Positions 1 through 9,221 are shown, numbered from the stretch's first letter. The stretch is 64,000 bases of DNA from Candidatus Limnocylindrales bacterium (GCA_035571835.1 DATNBU010000017.1:106687-170686), one strand, 5' to 3'. Notes: generated from the sequence alone by a model not told the origin. Numbers and translations are program-made.

Positions 1-1896
1 GCGGATCCGCTCGGCGGCTTTGCCGCGATCACCGAACGGCTCCGGTCGGAAGAGCCCCCGCTCGCCACGCGCGACGGCGTCTTTACGACGCCGGACGGAA
101 AGTACGCGGTGCTGTTTCTCGCCACGCGCAGCTCCGCGTTCGACTCGTTCGCGCAAAGGCCGCTGCTCGATGCGATCCGCCGGACGTTCGACGAGCAGCG
201 AGCGCTCCTCGGGCCCGACCTCGTGCTCGAACAGAGCGGCGCCAACCGCTTTTCGATCGACGCGGAGAACAAGATCCGCGGCGACGCATCGCTGATCTCG
301 ACGCTCTCCGGCATCGGCGTCGCCGCGCTGTCGCTGCTGTTCTTCCGTTCGCTGATCTCGCTCGCGATCGTGACGATACCGGGCGTCGCGGGCCTGCTCT
401 TCGCGCTCGCGGCCGGCCTGTTCTTCTTCGGCCGTCTCGACGGCATGACGATCGCGTTCGGCGCTTCGCTGATCGGCGTGACCATCGATTATCCGACGCA
501 CGTGCTGATCCTGTGGAGCCTGTCGAAGTCCGGCGAGACGCCGTGGCAGGTCACGCGCCGGCTTGCCGGATCCCTTTCGATGGCCGCGCTGACGACGATG
601 GCAAGTTTTGCCGGGCTTGCCTGGACGTCGTTCCGCGGCTTCCGCGAGCTCGGCTGGTTCGCGGTGCTCGGCGTCGCCGGTGCGCTCGTGGCATCGCTGC
701 TGCTGCTGCCGGATCTCTTGCCGCGCCGGCGCAGGATCCAGCCGGTTTCCGAAGGGCTCGCGAACGTCCTCGGTCCGTGGCTGGTCCGCCTTCGCGAGCG
801 GCGCATGGTGCTCGCGCTGGCGCCAATCGCGATCGTGATCGTCGCGGCATTCGCGCTGCCGAAGCTCGCATGGAACGACGATCTCTCGCGCATCTCGTCG
901 CCCGATCCGGTGCTCAAGGCAGAGGACGACCGCGTGCGCGAGCGCGTGTCGAACTTCGACCCGGGCCGCTTCGTGATTGCTGCCGGCAACGACGCTGCGG
1001 CGATGCTCGAGCGCAACGAACAGGTCCATGCGCGGCTCGAGAAGCTGGTTCGCGAAGGAAAGCTCGGGGGCATGCGCTCGCTGCACGCGCTGCTGTGGCC
1101 CGAGTCGCTGCAGCGGCGCAATCTCGAGGTGCTGCGCGCAAGTCCCGATCTTCCGCGCCGGCTAGACGCCGCGTTCGTGCACGAAGGGTTCCGGCCGCAG
1201 TCGTTCGCGCCGTTCGCCGAGATGCTCGCGAATCCGCCGCCGCCGCTCGACCTCGCCACGCTTCGCGCGTCGGCGCTCGGACCGCTGGTGAGCTCGCTCG
1301 TGCTCGACCTCGGCGACCGCGTCGCGGCCATCACGTATCTGCGCGGCGTGCGCGACGCCGACGCGGTGCGTGCCGCGCTCGGCGATCTTCCCGACGTGAC
1401 GTTCTTCGAGCAGCGCACGTTCCTCAACGACATCTTCGCGCACTTCCGAAACCAGACGCTGCGCCTCGTCGTCGTCGGCACCGTGCTCGTCTACGTGCTG
1501 CTGCTCGTGCGCTACCGCCACTGGCGGAGCGCCACCGCGGCGTTCCTTCCCGCGCTGCTCGTGCCGGTCGTGCTGCTGTCGGGCTTCGCGCTGGCCGGCG
1601 TCGAGACCAACCTGCTGCACGCGGTCAGCCTGCTGATGGTGATGGGCATGGGAGTCGACTACGGCATCTTCATCGTCGACACCGCGCGCGACGACGAGGC
1701 CGAGGTCGGCGCGACGCTGGTGTCGTGCCTTTTGTGCTGCCTGACGACGATCCTGTCGTTCGGCACGCTCGCGATCTCGAGCCAGCCGCCGCTGCGCGCG
1801 ATCGGCATCACGACCGGTGCCGGCGTTGCGCTGTCGCTGCTGTTCGCTCCGATCTCGCTGCTTCTGCTGAGCGTCAAATCGCGGTCGCAGCGGTAG
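1..1896 (+). CDS. MMPL/RND-superfamily predicted exporter (5' end outside window)
   Basis: Frame 1 is open from nt 1 into ORF 109..1896. Two hydrophobic halves have typical MMPL/SSD transmembrane patterning (e.g. GMTIAFGASLIGVTIDYPTHVLILW and MVMGMGVDYGIFIVD). Exporters of this type are standard in aryl-polyene/xanthomonadin clusters. Confidence 0.8.
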   Translation, partial: ADPLGGFAAITERLRSEEPPLATRDGVFTTPDGKYAVLFLATRSSAFDSFAQRPLLDAIRRTFDEQRALLGPDLVLEQSGANRFSIDAENKIRGDASLISTLSGIGVAALSLLFFRSLISLAIVTIPGVAGLLFALAAGLFFFGRLDGMTIAFGASLIGVTIDYPTHVLILWSLSKSGETPWQVTRRLAGSLSMAALTTMASFAGLAWTSFRGFRELGWFAVLGVAGALVASLLLLPDLLPRRRRIQPVSEGLANVLGPWLVRLRERRMVLALAPIAIVIVAAFALPKLAWNDDLSRISSPDPVLKAEDDRVRERVSNFDPGRFVIAAGNDAAAMLERNEQVHARLEKLVREGKLGGMRSLHALLWPESLQRRNLEVLRASPDLPRRLDAAFVHEGFRPQSFAPFAEMLANPPPPLDLATLRASALGPLVSSLVLDLGDRVAAITYLRGVRDADAVRAALGDLPDVTFFEQRTFLNDIFAHFRNQTLRLVVVGTVLVYVLLLVRYRHWRSATAAFLPALLVPVVLLSGFALAGVETNLLHAVSLLMVMGMGVDYGIFIVDTARDDEAEVGATLVSCLLCCLTTILSFGTLAISSQPPLRAIGITTGAGVALSLLFAPISLLLLSVKSRSQR

Positions 1897-2013
1897 CCAC
1901 TCGGTCTAAATCGACACTCAACTTCCCTTGAGGTAAAGTGTTGTGAAAACATGGCTGCTCTCCTGCGTTGCTGAAGACTCCGTACTGGACGAGTCGGCCG
2001 AGGGGCCGACGAG

Positions 2014-2823
2014 ATGGGCCAGTGGGTCAAGAAAGAATACAGCAACAAACGGATCAACGATGCCGCGGCACAACTTGCGCCTTGGTGGCTTCGTCCAGAC
2101 CGCTCCGCTGCAGACGCAATGGCAGAGGCATACGACGTCGTCGATAACTGGCGGGCTTCACACTCCTTTCCCCTCAACCACTTCCAAGATTCACTGAGGA
2201 AACGGTCACGAAAGGTCGATTCGAATGTCATCGTAGCGCGGCGGCTTAAACGCATGCCGTCCGTGTTAGCAAAGCTCGCTAGGTCTCCCTACCCGGTGAC
2301 AACTATGCAGGATCTAGGCGGCTGTCGCGCGATATTAGGCTCTATGCGTGAGGTTAACGCTGTCCTCGACACATTTATTGGTGAGCCGTCCCTATTTCCG
2401 CTGGAAGGGACTCCGCGTCATTACAATTACATACAGAAACCAAAAGCAGACGGTTATCGAGGTATTCACATCGTTGGCCGCTACAAAGCCAAGTCGCAGC
2501 AAACAAGCTTTTGGAGTGGGTATAGGATTGAGATTCAACTCAGGACCGTCCTGCAGCACGCGTGTTCGACAGCCGTTGAAACAGTCGCGACATTTACTGG
2601 GTTTCCACTCAAATTCGGCAAAGGACCGGATGACTGGAAGCGGTTTTTTGTGCTCGCCTCTTCTGCCTTCGCGATTCTCGAGCGCAGCCCCCTCTGCCCG
2701 GGAGCCCCTGAAGACTCCGAAGAAGATACAGCCTCGACCGCTCCCCTCCCCTTCGTCGTCGGGTCTTTCCCCGCTCGGAGCGCCGCCGAAGCGCCGGACG
2801 TTTACGGTGCCTGGCTCCCTTAA
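2014..2823 (+). CDS. RelA/SpoT-domain nucleotidyltransferase, stand-alone small-alarmone-synthetase-like (toxSAS-like), 269 aa
   Basis: Synthetase-fold motifs are present in canonical order: basic ATP-binding stretch RRLKRMPSVLAKLAR, DLGGCRAIL (the DxxGxR-type G-loop), NYIQKPKADGYRGIHIV, and the diagnostic EIQLRT. No HD hydrolase domain. A GAGGGG RBS-like purine run lies 8-13 nt upstream. The gene sits in the low-GC island. Confidence 0.75.
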   Translation: MGQWVKKEYSNKRINDAAAQLAPWWLRPDRSAADAMAEAYDVVDNWRASHSFPLNHFQDSLRKRSRKVDSNVIVARRLKRMPSVLAKLARSPYPVTTMQDLGGCRAILGSMREVNAVLDTFIGEPSLFPLEGTPRHYNYIQKPKADGYRGIHIVGRYKAKSQQTSFWSGYRIEIQLRTVLQHACSTAVETVATFTGFPLKFGKGPDDWKRFFVLASSAFAILERSPLCPGAPEDSEEDTASTAPLPFVVGSFPARSAAEAPDVYGAWLP

Positions 2824-3099
2824 AAGCTGAGTCATCATGACTCCCACAGTACATGTTCGTGAAGGATCAGATCGTCGCAAACCTTCTGACCCGGAGACTA
2901 CGGCGGCTTGATGACCGGCGGGCGGCCTGCCCCGGAGTCGGATCGTCGTATGGCAATGCGGCCCCCAGGTGCCTTGCCGACGCCCACAACTGGCCCGGCC
3001 AAGGGGCTTCGGGTTTCTCTTAAGTTGGCCACAGCAGTATGGATCTCAGTAGGTGGTTTTTATCGCACAGGGGACGTATTCCAGCTATGAATCCTGTAC

Positions 3100-3140
3100 A
3101 TTACTTGCCAGCAGTGGCCTTGGCATATATAGAGGCGCGT
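3100..3140 (+). promoter_or_regulatory. Putative sigma70-like promoter (TTGCCA-N15-TATATA) with overlapping TGCCA-N10-TGGCA inverted repeat
   Basis: Read directly in the AT-richer spacer between the RelA/SpoT-like gene and the small ORF. Spacer length is suboptimal (15 nt). Confidence 0.2.
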
Positions 3141-3176
3141 TGACTCTCGCCGACTCGGGCGCATAGGGAAACCGCA

Positions 3177-3362
3177 ATGACCTCCAAGACTGTAATCTAC
3201 TCAAGTCCGCGTCTAGCTGAAGCGGTTGGGAAGAAGAGCGCCACTGCGCAGCAGGGATCATTCGAGGTGCAGATTCGTCGGGTCAGGGATGTGCCAAGAT
3301 ACCTGCGGCGACTCCGGGAAATGAAGGACAGCGCGAAGCATAGCGTTCTGCTCTTCCGTTAG
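3177..3362 (+). CDS. Hypothetical small basic protein (61 aa), candidate cognate partner/antitoxin of the adjacent RelA/SpoT-like gene
   Basis: ORF with a GGGAAA RBS-like sequence 6 nt upstream of ATG, preceded by the candidate promoter. Arg/Lys-rich C-terminus (RRVRDVPRYLRRLREMK). No recognisable family. Confidence 0.3.
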   Translation: MTSKTVIYSSPRLAEAVGKKSATAQQGSFEVQIRRVRDVPRYLRRLREMKDSAKHSVLLFR

Positions 3363-3390
3363 CCCCTCACCCTCCGCGTCTCCTCCTCTC

Positions 3391-4986
3391 ATGCCGCAGC
3401 CATCGTCCGCTCCGCGGCTATCCCCTTCCCTCACTTGCCGCGTCCATTCGATGGCGCGTCCTTTTTCAAATTTCGACTACGTCGAATCCCACTATCAGCG
3501 GGAACCCGCCATTCGTCGCATATTCTCGCAAGCACGAATGCATCATGCCCAATCCTTCGCGGTCGAGGACATCGAAGCAGACGGACTGGTCGCTGACGAA
3601 AACGCGGAAATCCATTCGTTCCTGGCGTCCTACCAAATGACAGGCCTGCAGCGTCTCTCGTTCTGGACCGCTCCCAATGACGCTGTAGAGAATGGAAATA
3701 TCAACAGCGAAAATCTTGTCGGATACGCCGTCGTCAAAAAAGACAGAGTTCCGTCACGACAGAGTCTTGCAAATGGATCATGGCATGTTTTCGAGTCGGT
3801 AATTCGGAAATACCCGGATCGACACAATTACATACCAGCCAATCCCAAATTCCCCGTAGTTTTCGGAACCAGACAGTTCCAGCTGCAAGGGGCTCTCTAT
3901 TGCCAACAAAACGGTTTGAACAAATCTTGTGCTCAGGTCGCGATTCGAAGTTTACTAGCCACGATCTCACCTGAACTCGATATTTCGTATTCGCAGTTGA
4001 ACGCGATCGCTCGCAACTATCCGCCGCTGACGCCAAGCGAAGGGCTCAGCGTTCAACAGATTAGTGGAATATTTGATAAGCTAGGAATGAAATATACGGC
4101 AATCGAATACGGTGAAGACGAATCGAGTAGCGGTGGTAGTGACAGTCCAACTGATCGCGCGGCCTTCCCTTACCAGAAGTTTCTTTACGCGGGAGTCGAG
4201 GCTGGCGCCGGAGCGTTGCTTGGATTTCGGCGCGATGCGGCAGAGCCCGCCGAACGTTCTCATATCATCCCATTCTTCGGCCATACATTTAACAGCGATA
4301 CTTGGGTTGTGAATGCAGATTCTGGCTACTTCTCAATCGGCGAGGCAATACGATACATCCCCAGCGATGCTTGGGTGAACAGTTTCATCGGTCATGACGA
4401 TAACTACGGATCTAATTTCTGCGTTCCGCGTTTGTACGTAAAACCACAAAACGTAGGGTACGTGCTCGCACTGCATAAGGCAGGATTTGGAACTAGTGGT
4501 ATTGAGGCCGAAGCAATAGGGAGTGAGTACGTTTATGCGCTACTGGGCGTAGAGACGATTAAGGATTCAACAAATCCTTGGCTCAGAAGGCTAGTCGCTT
4601 TTGCGGACCAACAGCGCGTCGTAATACGTGCAGTACCACTTACTCGAGATGAATATGTGTCACATCTGAATGCTGCTCAGGACTGGGAATGGAATCGAGA
4701 GCACTCCTCTACGCGTGAAGTAATGAGAGCCCATCTACCGGAGCGACTTTGGATGATAGAGGTTTCTCTACCGGAACTCTTCCCAGCAAATCATCGAAAA
4801 CTGGGAAGCATACTATTGAATGGGGACGGAGAGTTCGGGGAAGATCTTGACCTCTCCGAGTTCGTCTTTGCCCAATTTCCTTCGATAATCGTCTTCGCTC
4901 GTGGCTTGAGCGCAGGTGGCACTCCGGAATTCACTTTCTCCGAGAGCAACCTCAAATCACATATCCCGGTTTATCCGGGCGAGTAA
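3391..4986 (+). CDS. Hypothetical protein, 531 aa, no recognisable family (possible papain/C39-like Cys-His core is speculative)
   Basis: Long uninterrupted ORF in the low-GC island with coding-like codon periodicity. Alternative in-frame starts at 3451 (MARPF) and further downstream. No convincing RBS at 3391, so the start is uncertain. Confidence 0.6.
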   Translation: MPQPSSAPRLSPSLTCRVHSMARPFSNFDYVESHYQREPAIRRIFSQARMHHAQSFAVEDIEADGLVADENAEIHSFLASYQMTGLQRLSFWTAPNDAVENGNINSENLVGYAVVKKDRVPSRQSLANGSWHVFESVIRKYPDRHNYIPANPKFPVVFGTRQFQLQGALYCQQNGLNKSCAQVAIRSLLATISPELDISYSQLNAIARNYPPLTPSEGLSVQQISGIFDKLGMKYTAIEYGEDESSSGGSDSPTDRAAFPYQKFLYAGVEAGAGALLGFRRDAAEPAERSHIIPFFGHTFNSDTWVVNADSGYFSIGEAIRYIPSDAWVNSFIGHDDNYGSNFCVPRLYVKPQNVGYVLALHKAGFGTSGIEAEAIGSEYVYALLGVETIKDSTNPWLRRLVAFADQQRVVIRAVPLTRDEYVSHLNAAQDWEWNREHSSTREVMRAHLPERLWMIEVSLPELFPANHRKLGSILLNGDGEFGEDLDLSEFVFAQFPSIIVFARGLSAGGTPEFTFSESNLKSHIPVYPGE

Positions 4987-5017
4987 TCGTTCCGACAGCT
5001 AGGCATCACAACACCGC

Positions 5018-5773
5018 TCATTCCGAATCGCCCTGACGGTCCGCGGGCGCCGCAGGCCGCGGCTGCGCGAACAGCTCGGCGAGCTCCTGCTCGCTGAATC
5101 GGTGCTCGACGTCGGTTTTCCCGAACCGCGTCACGGTGCGGTCGCCGTCCGGCTCGACGGCTTCCATGCGGTCGACGTGCGCGCCGTGGCCGGTCATGTC
5201 GAAGTACGAGATCATGCGCTCGAGCGGCATCGAGCGCGGCGACAGGTGCAGGTGCCACTCGCTTCCGCCGGCCTGCGCATCGCCCGCATCGTGCGGCGTT
5301 TCGCTGTATTCGGCGCGGTAGAGCTCCTTCAGACGCGCCTCGTCGCCGTTGAACAGCACGACGAAGCTGTCGACGATCTGGCGCGCGATCGGGCTCGACG
5401 ACAGATCCAGCGCCTTGCTGCCGGTCGCTTCCTCCATGCGCACCTTGTCGCCGTCGACGACGAGTCGCGACCGCGACGGGCTCACGACGACGCGCACGAA
5501 ACGATGCGGCGGAATGAAGTAAATCGTCCCCGAAGATTCGAGCGGCGCCGACAGCAGCGCAAGCTCCTTCGTTTCGGTGAACTCGGCGACGACGCCGGGC
5601 GACGCGCGCATCGCCGACAGCATCGACGACAGATCGTGGACGGCCGCGGGCTCGGTCGCCGCGGCCGGCTCGGCCAGAGCGAGCGCAGCTGGTTCAATGC
5701 CGGCAAGGAATGCCGAGCCGCTGAAACCGAGTGCCGCGATCACGCCGCGAGCCGCCGCCGATAGCGCCGCCAT
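5018..5773 (-). CDS. LolA-like outer-membrane lipoprotein carrier family protein (aryl-polyene cluster type)
   Basis: ORF 5018..5938 trimmed to internal Met (MAALSAAARGVIAALGFSG signal-like N-terminus). Size (~250 aa) and position next to thioesterase/exporter match LolA-like proteins of APE clusters. Confidence 0.65.
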   Translation of the reverse strand: MAALSAAARGVIAALGFSGSAFLAGIEPAALALAEPAAATEPAAVHDLSSMLSAMRASPGVVAEFTETKELALLSAPLESSGTIYFIPPHRFVRVVVSPSRSRLVVDGDKVRMEEATGSKALDLSSSPIARQIVDSFVVLFNGDEARLKELYRAEYSETPHDAGDAQAGGSEWHLHLSPRSMPLERMISYFDMTGHGAHVDRMEAVEPDGDRTVTRFGKTDVEHRFSEQELAELFAQPRPAAPADRQGDSE

Positions 5774-5813
5774 TCGCGAAACCCAGGCCAGCCGTCGAAG
5801 CTCGAGCTGTTGC

Positions 5814-6224
5814 TCAGCCACCGATGCGCTCGACAATGCCGGGCGGCGTCTCCAGCAGCAGCCGTCCTTCGAGATCGGTGGTCGCAAGGATCGTGTGGCC
5901 GCGCGCCGCGCGCCGCCCCGTCGCGATGTTGGTGACATCGTAGAGGATCCGGATGCGATGGCGGAGGTCGCCGAACCACGCGGAGACGCGCACGTTGTCG
6001 CCGTAGCGAAGCGCGGACGTGTAGCGGCAGTGGCTCTCGACGATCACGAACCGGTAGCGCGGCCCGATGATGTCTCCGGAGTCGAGGCCGACGCTGCGCA
6101 GCAGTCGCGTGCGCGCGATCTCGAGGTACTTGTAATAGTGTCCGTGCCAGACGATGCCGAGCCCGTCGATGTCGTGAAACGGAACCTCGAGCTCGATCGA
6201 CGTCTCGCGCAGCTTGTCGGTCAT
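5814..6224 (-). CDS. 4-hydroxybenzoyl-CoA thioesterase-family (4HBT/YbgC-like hotdog) acyl thioesterase
   Basis: Hotdog-thioesterase pattern in MTDKLRETSIELEVPFHDIDGLGIVWHGHYYKYLEIART. The listed ORF (TTG at 6323) is trimmed to the internal ATG. Confidence 0.75.
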   Translation of the reverse strand: MTDKLRETSIELEVPFHDIDGLGIVWHGHYYKYLEIARTRLLRSVGLDSGDIIGPRYRFVIVESHCRYTSALRYGDNVRVSAWFGDLRHRIRILYDVTNIATGRRAARGHTILATTDLEGRLLLETPPGIVERIGG

Positions 6225-6246
6225 TCCGGTGTCTTTGCCGGTGTGT

Positions 6247-7827
6247 TCACGCAGGTCCGGGCTCGGGCAGCTCGAGATCGATCGGCAGACCGTCGCTGCG
6301 CAGCAGCTCGAGCACGGCCGCAATGTCGCCGTCCTGCCGGCGATCCTGCTCGAGTGGCGGCACGCGGCGCCGAACCGCGTCGTGCAGCGTCGCTACGGCT
6401 TCAGGGACCGAGCCGCCGCTTCGCATGCGGAGGTCGACGGCCTGGCACGCGGCCAGCAGCGTAATCGTTGCGACCGTTTCGGCGAGCTCGACCACGCGAC
6501 GGGCTTCGCGCGATGCGAGCGTACCCATGCTGACCTTGTCCTGGTTGTGCGACTCGGTGCTGCGGCTGAAGACCGCAGCGGGAAGACTCGTCTTGGCCGC
6601 TTCGGCCGCGAGCGCCGACGCCGTGATCTGCATGGCCTTGAACCCGTGATGCGACACGCGCGGCGATGCGACCAGATTGGCCGGAAGACCGCCGCTGGTC
6701 TCCGGCAGGCACAGCAGCACGAGCTGGCGGTCGAGGAGGTCGGCCGCCGAAGCCATCGCGCCCTTGAGCGCATCGAGCGCGAAGACGACGTGCCCGCCGT
6801 AGAAATTTCCGCCGTGCAGCACGCGGCCGGATTCGGGATCGATGACCGGATTGTCGTTGACGCCGGCGATCTCGATGTCGAGCACTCGCCTCGCGAGCGC
6901 GCATGCATCGACGAGCACGCCGAGCACGTGCGGAGCGCAGCGCACCGAATAGCGGTCCTGCAGGCGAAGCGGCTCCGGGCTGGGGCCGCCGGCGAGGAAC
7001 GCGCGGATCCAGCTTCCGACTTCGACCGTACCGGCATGCGGCTTGAGGCCGAGAACCGCGTCGTCGAAGTGCTCGGCGTTGCCGAGCGTGGCCGCGCTCG
7101 TCATCGCGGTGATCGCCGCCGCGAGCTTCGCGAGCCGCTCGGCGCGCACCAGCACGAGGCTCGCGATGCCGGCCATCACGCTGGTGCCGTTCATCAGCGC
7201 GAGGCTTTCCTTGGGAGCCAGCACGAGCGGTGCAATTCCGGCCGCGGCGAGCGCATCGCGCGCGGGCACCGTCTGACCGCTGACGACGGCTTCGCCTTCG
7301 CCCGCCAGCAGCCCGGCGACATACGCGAGCGGAGTCAGGTCACCGCTCGCGCCGACCGAGCCTTCTTCGGGAATTCGCGGCAGCACGCCGCGCGCGACCA
7401 GAAGCGCCAGATGCTCGAGCACCACCGGGCGGACCGCCGAGTAGCCGCGGGCAAGCGACGCGAGACGCACCGCAATGACCGCCGAGGCTTCGGTGGGGTC
7501 GAGGATTCGTCCGGTTCCGCAGCCGTGAAAGCGGAACAGGTTGCGGGCGAGATCGGCCTGCAGGTGCTCGGGGACATCGTTTTCGACCGATGCGCCGACG
7601 CCGGTGGAAACCCCGTAGACGGGTTCCCCGGCCGACAGGCATCGCTCGAGCACGGTGCGCCCGGCTTCGAGGCGGGCAAGGAATGCGGGGTCGGCGCTGA
7701 TCGCCGGCTCGGCCAGACCGAACGCGATCGAGACGACCTCGTCGACGCCGACCAGGTCCGACCCGAAGACGACGCGTGCTGCAGCCGGCACACCCGCCGC
7801 GGCTGCCTCGCTGGTACGGGCCGTCAT
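6247..7827 (-). CDS. Aromatic amino acid ammonia-lyase (HAL/TAL/PAL family) with MIO-forming Ala-Ser-Gly triad
   Basis: GSVGASGDLTPLAYVAG contains the ASG MIO precursor. Also MNGTSVMAG and NDNPVID motifs. Start trimmed to MTARTSEAAAAG (527 aa), a typical HAL/TAL size. Confidence 0.85.
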   Translation of the reverse strand: MTARTSEAAAAGVPAAARVVFGSDLVGVDEVVSIAFGLAEPAISADPAFLARLEAGRTVLERCLSAGEPVYGVSTGVGASVENDVPEHLQADLARNLFRFHGCGTGRILDPTEASAVIAVRLASLARGYSAVRPVVLEHLALLVARGVLPRIPEEGSVGASGDLTPLAYVAGLLAGEGEAVVSGQTVPARDALAAAGIAPLVLAPKESLALMNGTSVMAGIASLVLVRAERLAKLAAAITAMTSAATLGNAEHFDDAVLGLKPHAGTVEVGSWIRAFLAGGPSPEPLRLQDRYSVRCAPHVLGVLVDACALARRVLDIEIAGVNDNPVIDPESGRVLHGGNFYGGHVVFALDALKGAMASAADLLDRQLVLLCLPETSGGLPANLVASPRVSHHGFKAMQITASALAAEAAKTSLPAAVFSRSTESHNQDKVSMGTLASREARRVVELAETVATITLLAACQAVDLRMRSGGSVPEAVATLHDAVRRRVPPLEQDRRQDGDIAAVLELLRSDGLPIDLELPEPGPA

Positions 7828-8059
7828 CGTGCGACGTATAGGGCGGATACCGGCCCGAATCGAGCCGTCCGGGCCCGTCCGGGATGCGGCGCCACGAACG
7901 GCCGACGGCGGGCCGCAACTGATCGATTCGCGCGGTGCTGCAGGCCACAAACGCGCCGCAGGCCGTCGCGATCGGCCTTCGTTTTCCGCAGGAGATGAGG
8001 TATCGAAGCGGGTGGCAACGTCGCCAGGCGTCGACTGGTTCGAGGTGGAAACGAAAAGC

Positions 8060-8965
8060 ATGCGGCATGTGACGCTCGAGCGGCCCATCCGAGCGCACGC
8101 TGACCAGCCGGCCGCACGCGCGACCGGCGAAAGCGGCCGGTCGCTGTCGGTGCGCGGACCCTCATCGGATCGAGATGCCGCGTCCGGAGCCCTGGCCGCA
8201 GGCCGTCGGTACTGGCGGCAGATCCGCCTCGCATGCTCGTTTGCCCAGTTCGGGGTGACTGCGCTCGCGGTTGCGTTCGTCGTCGCACCGGTCGTGCGCC
8301 TCTCGGCGGCCTCGAGCGAGCAGGCCGAGATGGCGGTGCAGCGCGCGATCCGGCGCGCCTATGCGTTCTCGGTCGCGCTCTGGAGGCTCGTCGGGATCTT
8401 CCGGCTGGACGCACGCGGCCTGGCCGGGCTCGCGGACTGCGGCCCGTGCATCGTCGTCGCGAACCATCCGACGCTGGTCGACGTGGTCCTGATCGGATCG
8501 GTCCTCGAGCAGATGGACTGCATCGTCAATGCGGGCTGGACCGCGAAGAGCCCGTTTCTGGCCCGCGCCATCGAGGTGGCCGGGTACGTGCGCAACGACG
8601 GCGGCGTTGCGGTCGTCGAGCAGTGTGCGCGGCGCCTGCGTTCGGGACGGCGGCTGCTGGTGTTCCCGGAAGGCACGCGGTCGCCGTGGGGAAGTTTTGG
8701 AAAGTTCCATCGCGGTGCGGCGCATATCGCGCTCGCCAGCGGCGCTCCGCTGGTTGCGGTGGCGATCCGCTGCCGCCCGCGGATGCTTGGAAGCGGCCGC
8801 AAGTGGAGCGACACCGACGGCCGCCGGCCCGCCTACGAGCTCGCGATTGCCGGCCGGCTCGATCCGGCCGACTACGCCGGCATGACGACGCCGCTTGCCG
8901 CACGAAAGATGACCGACGACCTGCTCAGGATTTTTCTCGAGGAGCCCAATCTTGCAGACGCGTGA
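8060..8965 (+). CDS. PlsC-family lysophospholipid/1-acylglycerol-3-phosphate acyltransferase
   Basis: NHPTLVDV (NHxxxxD) and FPEGTRS motifs. Start chosen at the first Met after divergence from the ammonia-lyase; earlier alternative starts cannot be excluded. Confidence 0.75.
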   Translation: MRHVTLERPIRAHADQPAARATGESGRSLSVRGPSSDRDAASGALAAGRRYWRQIRLACSFAQFGVTALAVAFVVAPVVRLSAASSEQAEMAVQRAIRRAYAFSVALWRLVGIFRLDARGLAGLADCGPCIVVANHPTLVDVVLIGSVLEQMDCIVNAGWTAKSPFLARAIEVAGYVRNDGGVAVVEQCARRLRSGRRLLVFPEGTRSPWGSFGKFHRGAAHIALASGAPLVAVAIRCRPRMLGSGRKWSDTDGRRPAYELAIAGRLDPADYAGMTTPLAARKMTDDLLRIFLEEPNLADA

Positions 8966-9221
8966 CGAACTGACCGCAGACATCAAGGCCATGATCGTCG
9001 AAGTGCTCGCGCTCGAGGACATCCGGCCGGAGGAGATCGAAACCGACGCTCCGCTGTTCGTCGAAGGCCTCGGGCTCGATTCGATCGATGCGCTCGAGCT
9101 CGCGATGGGCCTCGAGGAAAAGTACGGCGTAATCATCACCGACGACCCCGAACGCAACGAGAAGATCTTCGCGTCGGTCGGCGCGCTCGCCGATCTCGTC
9201 ACGGCCGAACGCACCCGCTGA
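8952..9221 (+). CDS. Acyl carrier protein
   Basis: 89 aa, GLDSIDALEL phosphopantetheine-attachment motif. TTG start with GGAG 5 nt upstream, overlapping the end of the acyltransferase gene. Confidence 0.8.
   Translation: MQTRDELTADIKAMIVEVLALEDIRPEEIETDAPLFVEGLGLDSIDALELAMGLEEKYGVIITDDPERNEKIFASVGALADLVTAERTR

Follow-up and report, generated by a model that had tools for sequence, protein, structure and literature searches.

A low-GC islet in a pigment gene cluster holds a truncated CapRel-type gene and a widespread two-gene unit with a predicted cysteine peptidase

A stretch of 64,000 nucleotides (nt) from Candidatus Limnocylindrales bacterium (GCA_035571835.1, DATNBU010000017.1:106687-170686) was analysed; this whole stretch is called the window, and positions are counted from its first letter. 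An islet of low guanine-plus-cytosine (GC) content at 1897-5017 carries three open reading frames (ORFs), which the sequence-only reading, made by a model from the DNA without database searches, had taken as one undescribed toxin or defence module consisting of a RelA/SpoT-like nucleotidyltransferase (NTase), a small basic ORF and a large orphan protein. All three ORFs exist as listed there. However, the islet probably contains two independent items, namely a decayed CapRel-type gene and an intact small/large operon, the latter being a putative cassette of the toxin-antitoxin (TA) or defence kind. The features of the islet, with protein lengths in amino acids (aa), are as follows.

1897-5017, no strand: insert of low GC lying where the exporter and LolA-like genes converge
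2014-2730, plus strand: toxSYNTH (RelA_SpoT) part of a CapRel/PDC-S33-type gene (PF04607, PADLOC PDC-S33, 7ztb)
2731-2823, plus strand: non-homologous GC-rich read-through tail, aa 240-269 and then a stop (GC 0.70; tblastn)
2824-3176, no strand: spacer of 353 bp with no detectable homology or RNA family
3177-3362, plus strand: gene of a 61-aa basic protein (isoelectric point, pI, 11.3), the conserved upstream partner of the large gene
3391-4986, plus strand: gene of a 531-aa protein with an N-terminal alpha/beta domain, a predicted papain/C39-like core and a C-terminal alpha/beta domain

The GC content across 1801-5100 was 0.49-0.64 in 300-nt steps, compared with 0.67-0.72 in the flanks. When the 64 kb were divided into 1-kb segments (mean 0.667, standard deviation 0.034), values below 0.60 were found only at the islet, and the lowest (0.497) was at 3751. 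GC at third codon positions was 0.57 in the RelA_SpoT ORF, 0.645 in the 61-aa ORF and 0.50 in the 531-aa ORF, whereas it reached 0.89, 0.82 and 0.81 in the host genes for the exporter, the LolA-like protein and an aromatic lyase, which sharpened the contrast between islet and flanks. The edges of the islet coincide with the stop codons of the exporter (1894-1896) and the LolA-like gene (5018-5020). Within the islet the composition was uneven, with patches of approximately 0.68-0.70 at 2731-2823 and 3363-3450, which suggests a mosaic or rearranged islet. The first of these patches starts exactly at the end of the RelA/SpoT homology.

Scanning metagenomes with the LolA-like protein brought up six loci. 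The closest of them, L085, resembles the window in its thioesterase (92% identity), exporter C-terminus (92.6%) and LolA-like protein (68%), and it represents the empty site: the convergent exporter and LolA-like genes overlap there by about 23 bp with no insert between them, the exporter stop being the complement of cta at 2118-2120 and the LolA-like stop being tga at 2138-2140. In the window the same two genes lie 3.1 kb apart. The extreme C-termini of both window proteins differ from the L085 versions, indicating that the insertion rewrote both gene ends. Foreign composition and an empty site in a relative together mark the islet as DNA that was acquired horizontally and inserted between the two convergent genes. 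The sequence-only reading thus held good for the low-GC segment bounded by the two stop codons and for the acquisition of a cassette in a 3'-3' gap. While deviant composition and an empty site are traits of a genomic island, the hallmarks of mobility (integrase, tRNA target and direct repeats) were lacking: no tRNA gene was found in the 64-kb window and no integrase ORF in the ORF listing of the islet, and the search for direct or inverted repeats flanking the islet and for target-site duplications gave only short matches at chance level. An 11-nt repeat pair at 1804/5002 was rejected as a junction repeat, since it sits inside the conserved exporter gene, away from the junction. The islet had neither an Rfam match (E<=1) nor tandem repeats.

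A genome scan with the large protein yielded 80 loci. The hosts included Verrucomicrobiota, Lentisphaerota, Kiritimatiellia, Planctomycetota, Desulfobacterota, Chloroflexota, Hydrogenedentota, Omnitrophota, Fibrobacterota and Sedimenticola, among others. The databases hold hundreds of homologues over the full length of about 520 aa, at 40-50% identity, all annotated as hypothetical and none with a Pfam domain. An exhaustive profile search found 1426 clusters at 50% identity, 586 of them at E<=1e-30, and nearly all had the same length; the family is accordingly put at about 600-1400 such clusters. Upstream of the large gene, 38 homologues of about 60 aa could be aligned essentially gap-free, and with a profile of these ORFs a small-ORF homologue was detected in 70 of the 73 eligible loci; the three loci with no match include the most divergent family members. 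The distance from the stop of the small gene to the start of the large gene was -1 to 36 bp in 29 measured loci and 28 bp in the window. When 533 ORFs from the neighbourhoods were clustered, no third conserved gene emerged, any other family being shared by at most four of the 80 loci. The conserved unit is exactly two genes, encoding a small and a large protein. Such a tightly spaced, mobile operon with the small gene first has the layout of type II TA loci, and the patchy occurrence across phyla at 40-50% identity indicates that the pair moves horizontally. The 61-aa ORF of the sequence-only reading is thus a real gene, but it is the partner of the large gene and not of the NTase.

Annotations of the large gene disagree on its start and give proteins of 449, 511 and 531 aa. 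We favoured the start at 3391 (531 aa) because the N-termini of the homologues align with it, showing 'PRL', 15 residues and then 'PFSNF'. At the sequence level the earlier description of this protein as having no recognisable domain was correct: for none of 25 members was a Pfam match obtained at E<=1, no NCBIfam match was found, and there was no relative in the PDB by phmmer or by profile at E<=10. The attempt to place the large and small proteins in a sequence-level family was negative throughout (Pfam, NCBIfam, PADLOC, PHROGs and the PDB by phmmer and profile). The protein is nevertheless no orphan but a member of a large family for which a papain/C39-like core is predicted. An AlphaFold2 model built from 25 sequences reached a mean predicted local distance difference test score (pLDDT) of 85.4 and a predicted template modelling score of 0.83. 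The candidate catalytic features are the following.

3868-4485, plus strand: predicted papain/C39-like peptidase core, about aa 160-365
3928-3930, plus strand: codon of the invariant Cys180, predicted nucleophile, in the motif QQNGLNKSCAQ (C160 in 511-aa numbering)
4282-4284, plus strand: codon of the invariant His298, candidate general base, in the motif GHTFN (H278 in 511-aa numbering)
4393-4404, plus strand: invariant His335-Asp336-Asp337-Asn338 in the motif GHDDN, alternative or additional candidate catalytic residues (H315, D316, D317 and N318 in 511-aa numbering)

Residues Q172, Q173, N177, C180, H298 and H335-D-D-N were invariant in the family, the first four lying in the motif QQNxLNKxC. 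In the model, which follows the 511-aa numbering, a helix starts at C160, H278 lies in strand 270-280 and H315-N318 stand at the end of strand 309-316. A Foldseek search with the model matched the C39 domains of PCAT1 and ComA, staphopains (including the complex with staphostatin), a papain-like cysteine protease toxin/immunity pair (9l5u), CdiA-CT (8ssk) and UFM1/ubiquitin-specific peptidases. The model and the fold search thus agree on a papain-like fold for the core, and the invariant Q/N...C, H and HDDN residues fit this assignment. The central domain is therefore predicted, on the basis of modelling, to be a papain/C39-like (clan CA) cysteine peptidase. Both flanking alpha/beta domains contain many invariant residues and have no assignable relatives. 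Compared with PCAT1, ComA, the staphopains and UfSP/ZUFSP, the large protein appears alike in fold and key residues of the model, but it has no sequence-level link to any Pfam or PDB family, its core is set between two large family-specific domains, and it is accompanied by no ABC transporter, signal peptide or ubiquitin-like machinery.

Conserved features of the small proteins are a helix at the N-terminus, after which F-G often occurs, and the pattern S-x-L-x-F-x at the very C-terminal end; F-G does not occur in all of them, and the window copy lacks it. Their median pI was 10.1, as against 6.2 for the large proteins. A model of the 61-aa protein alone had a pLDDT of 64, with two helices at 11-21 and 38-52, and this poor stand-alone model is consistent with folding on a partner. 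There were 29 database homologues of the 61-aa protein, all hypothetical, and its exact sequence was absent from the searched protein collection. The gene is uncalled in all public records of the genome, and one gene caller placed a 49-aa ORF on the opposite strand. The sequence-only reading had given this ORF its own promoter-like element, but no such site lies upstream of 3177 by a consensus scan; the sole site in 1700-5300 was at 1911-1939, compared with a mean of 1.9 sites in shuffled sequences.

The genomic surroundings of the pair were variable. In an Opitutaceae metagenome-assembled genome (MAG; locus L083, 4339-14348), it is located between a BilABCD-like ubiquitin-like defence operon and a TIR_2/AAA_23/MC5/CTD9 cluster. 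This pair also lies near an rve-type integrase in a dense conflict island. In the MAG of a Thiodiazotropha symbiont (L092, 3708-17596), the pair belongs to an island bounded by a phage-type integrase that also contains RHS-repeat toxins, an OLD-like ATPase, an MqsA-like antitoxin and an nSTAND3 NTPase. The pair borders a phage-like element in one further locus, and in three others it forms a solitary two-gene islet among housekeeping genes, like in the window. The most frequent families among the 267 nearest neighbours were AAA_21 (6), type I S subunits (4), phage integrase (3) and helix-turn-helix proteins (3).

The self-contained operon with the small gene first, the patchy horizontal spread, the variable neighbourhoods including conflict islands and the nearby remnant of a defence gene together give the profile of a TA or defence cassette. 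In such a cassette the large peptidase would be the effector, cleaving a cellular or an invader protein, while the 61-aa basic protein would bind the peptidase as its cognate partner and block its activity, which a trigger would release by removing the partner. We assign these roles, with the small protein as cognate inhibitor or partner, tentatively. Still more doubtful, although worth stating, is that the pair constitutes an undescribed and widespread two-gene family of TA or anti-phage systems in which a cytoplasmic cysteine peptidase is checked by a small partner. The family so proposed spans the PVC (Planctomycetes-Verrucomicrobia-Chlamydiae) superphylum, Desulfobacterota, Chloroflexota, Planctomycetota and some Gammaproteobacteria.

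Known systems offer partial parallels. With type II TA operons and small defence cassettes the pair shares the small-first order, the tight gap of -1 to 36 bp, the patchy horizontal spread and the variable neighbourhoods including defence or mobile islands, and in the window it stands beside the remnant of a defence gene. On the other hand, it has no recognisable antitoxin DNA-binding fold, its putative toxin is unusually large with three domains, and it matches no known TA or defence profile. A gene for a papain-fold peptidase also adjoins the gene of a small dedicated partner in staphopain-staphostatin, in CdiA-CT/CdiI (8ssk) and in Cpe1, an interbacterial papain-like toxin with an immunity protein (PMC12136450). 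In those systems, however, the inhibitor gene follows the protease gene and the protease is secreted or delivered, whereas in the window pair the small gene precedes the large one, the peptidase looks cytoplasmic and its inhibition is a supposition.

Several points weigh against a TA or defence role. Most neighbours are ordinary housekeeping genes, and the association with defence genes is modest and was counted with no control set. No relative of the large protein was found in the 2.9 million viral contigs of IMG/VR, and neither protein had a match in PADLOC-DB 2.0 at E<=0.1. Toxicity, inhibition and phage defence by the pair are what we infer, and for the small protein the roles of substrate, processed peptide or DNA-binding regulator are just as conceivable. 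Neither for PDC-S33 nor for defence or TA pairs based on a C39/papain-like protease did the searchable literature yield a description of this module. The pair thus appears undescribed, as judged from PADLOC, Pfam, NCBIfam, PHROGs and that literature, absence from which is no proof of novelty.

The alternative that fares best takes the pair as a dedicated protease and its substrate or precursor, in which the peptidase processes the 61-aa protein into a mature peptide or modifier with a physiological role, after the model of C39 leader-peptide cutting or of the UfSP/ZUFSP-type cutting of small modifiers. C39 leader peptidases (PCAT1, ComA) and UFM1/ubiquitin-specific peptidases are indeed among the best fold matches, the conserved N-terminal helix, the frequent F-G and the conserved S-x-L-x-F-x C-terminus would suit a processed protein, and many loci are solitary among housekeeping genes. 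However, no transporter, E1/E2 or modification enzyme occurs among the neighbours and there is no third conserved gene, F-G is not universal and is absent from the window copy, and for a beta-grasp modifier the small protein has too few residues and too much helix. The patchy horizontal distribution and the occurrence in defence and mobile islands fit a selfish or conflict cassette better, and we regard processing as rather unlikely.

As for the first gene of the islet, the 269-aa ORF matched PF04607 (E 1.8e-11, 44.7 bits against a cut-off of 27, residues 77-186). It also matched PADLOC PDC-S33 at E 1.8e-73, covering only profile positions 3-227 of 349, and phrog_4773 over positions 28-227 of 353. 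Its best relative in the PDB was CapRelSJ46 (7ztb, E 1.1e-27), and its R77, R105 and Y148 align with R79, R116 and Y155 of that protein, of which the two arginines coordinate ATP and the tyrosine belongs to the G-loop (PMC9712102). These matches identify the ORF as a hydrolase-less RelA/SpoT enzyme of the toxSAS/CapRel kind. CapRel is a toxin fused to its antitoxin. The toxSAS domain at the N-terminus pyrophosphorylates tRNA and, when present by itself, is toxic and shuts translation down, whereas the C-terminal pseudo-zinc-finger domain (pseudo-ZFD) autoinhibits the toxin and serves as phage sensor, with a YXXY motif plugging the active site (PMC9712102).

The close database relatives of the 269-aa ORF all measured 349-400 aa, and the nearest, about 50% identical, were all fused proteins. 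When five full-length relatives were compared by tblastn with all six frames of 1801-5100, they aligned by residues 1-239 only, and their C-terminal portions of about 110 residues had no counterpart in any frame, so that a frameshifted or relocated CapRel C-terminal domain was ruled out. YxxY was present within the last 70 aa of all 112 full-length relatives and absent from the window ORF. The GC content leaps from 0.54 to 0.70 exactly where the homology stops. ORF 2014-2730 is therefore homologous to toxSYNTH with the ATP-coordinating arginines and the G-loop tyrosine kept, but the pseudo-ZFD, the anchors and YxxY, the parts which make CapRel (CapRelSJ46, 7ZTB; PDC-S33) a regulated defence protein, are missing, and the ORF should not be filed as a functional CapRel. 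By sequence comparison, it is a 3'-truncated CapRel-type gene that has lost its antitoxin/sensor domain. The sequence-only reading was thus right about a hydrolase-less RelA/SpoT protein related to toxSAS and CapRel, but the stand-alone architecture it described is that of a truncated fusion. A deletion would have removed the antitoxin/sensor domain and the YxxY plug, leaving the toxin domain (aa 1 to about 239), and the reading frame would then run into unrelated sequence.

The retained part of the ORF has 13 substitutions at columns at least 95% conserved among the relatives, consistent with relaxed constraint. On the other hand, the catalytic residues are intact, and the promoter-like site at 1911-1939 and a Shine-Dalgarno-like GAGGGG lie upstream. 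For this reason we can only infer that the ORF is a decaying, non-functional remnant, silent or inactive. By the logic of CapRel, a truncated toxin that has lost its antitoxin domain would be constitutively toxic if made.

It might be argued that the 269-aa ORF is instead a functional toxSAS of the bicistronic type, neutralised by a separate antitoxin gene in 2824-3362. The fused form predominates except in Actinobacteria (PMC9712102), the catalytic residues are intact and small ORFs are present downstream. Against this, the closest relatives are all fused and the homology ends abruptly in mid-protein together with the jump in GC. No downstream frame resembles an antitoxin domain or has YxxY, and the only conserved small ORF downstream belongs to the peptidase pair, so that the conserved adjacent antitoxin gene expected of a bicistronic toxSAS is lacking. 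This makes a bicistronic toxSAS very improbable.

The single three-component toxin or defence system put forward by the sequence-only reading is slightly less credible still. In its favour, the three genes lie next to one another on the same strand of a single foreign islet, and an NTase with an intact catalytic core but no antitoxin domain in cis would need a neutraliser in trans. A RelA/SpoT homologue was nevertheless found in none of the 80 large-gene loci, on which ground the three-gene system was rejected, and four loci of intact CapRel-like NTase relatives lacked the small/large pair. All close NTase relatives are fused proteins of about 350 aa, indicating that the window copy is a truncation and no distinct architecture. 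The NTase and the pair are also separated by the 353-bp spacer; when 2730-3176 was compared by blastn and tblastx with the window and with 98 loci, no match rose above chance level, and Rfam gave nothing at E<=1. The CapRel remnant beside the pair would rather reflect the clustering of such cassettes at one insertion spot.

Least probable of all is that the junctions or the break within the RelA/SpoT gene are artefacts of metagenome assembly, for although the source is a MAG and the RelA homology ends exactly at the GC jump, 7 kb spanning both junctions and the break were 100% identical in an ENA (European Nucleotide Archive; MEGAHIT) contig of 317 kb and in a Logan contig, and a JGI (Joint Genome Institute) contig of 416 kb encodes the identical 269-aa ORF, which argues against an assembler-specific chimera, bearing in mind that these data may share one sample.

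With the trio ruled out, effort on a false lead is saved, and a sizeable family of protein pairs is exposed that annotation resources have not recognised, comes almost wholly from uncultured bacteria and usually has its small gene uncalled. If a protease-based TA or defence function is true, the pair would add a new type of effector to bacterial conflict systems, a papain/C39-like peptidase with two accessory domains, and would provide a concrete target for finding the substrate of the peptidase. The pair is a good candidate for experiments, the new mechanism being proposed and not demonstrated. The truncated CapRel copy illustrates, on a small scale and in nature, how a defence gene decays, and it raises the question of how a toxin domain lacking its antitoxin is tolerated.

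The flanks of the islet form a pigment cluster of the aryl-polyene/xanthomonadin type, with acyltransferases, a glycosyltransferase, DUF3261, an MMPL-like exporter, LolA_3, a 4HBT thioesterase and a lyase. Its features near the islet are listed below.

109-1896, plus strand: 3' part of the host MMPL/RND-like exporter, 787 aa in full (weak ACR_tran, SecD_SecF_C and MMPL matches; full call in L099)
5018-5938, minus strand: host LolA-like gene (PF19574 LolA_3, E 1.4e-8; called by gene callers as 251 aa at 5018-5773)
5814-6323: 4HBT thioesterase
6247-8088: aromatic amino-acid lyase
8952-9221: acyl carrier protein
An acyltransferase also belongs to the host cluster

The LolA-like/MMPL-type export pair was unexpected in a Candidatus Limnocylindrales bin, and the binning or taxonomy may deserve a check. 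In two loci from more distant relatives, L089 (1730-3329) and L090 (1632-3153), the LolA-like gene is followed by a gene for a DUF3261-like lipoprotein and a glycosyltransferase gene instead of the exporter, indicating that gene order at this point of the pigment cluster is variable.

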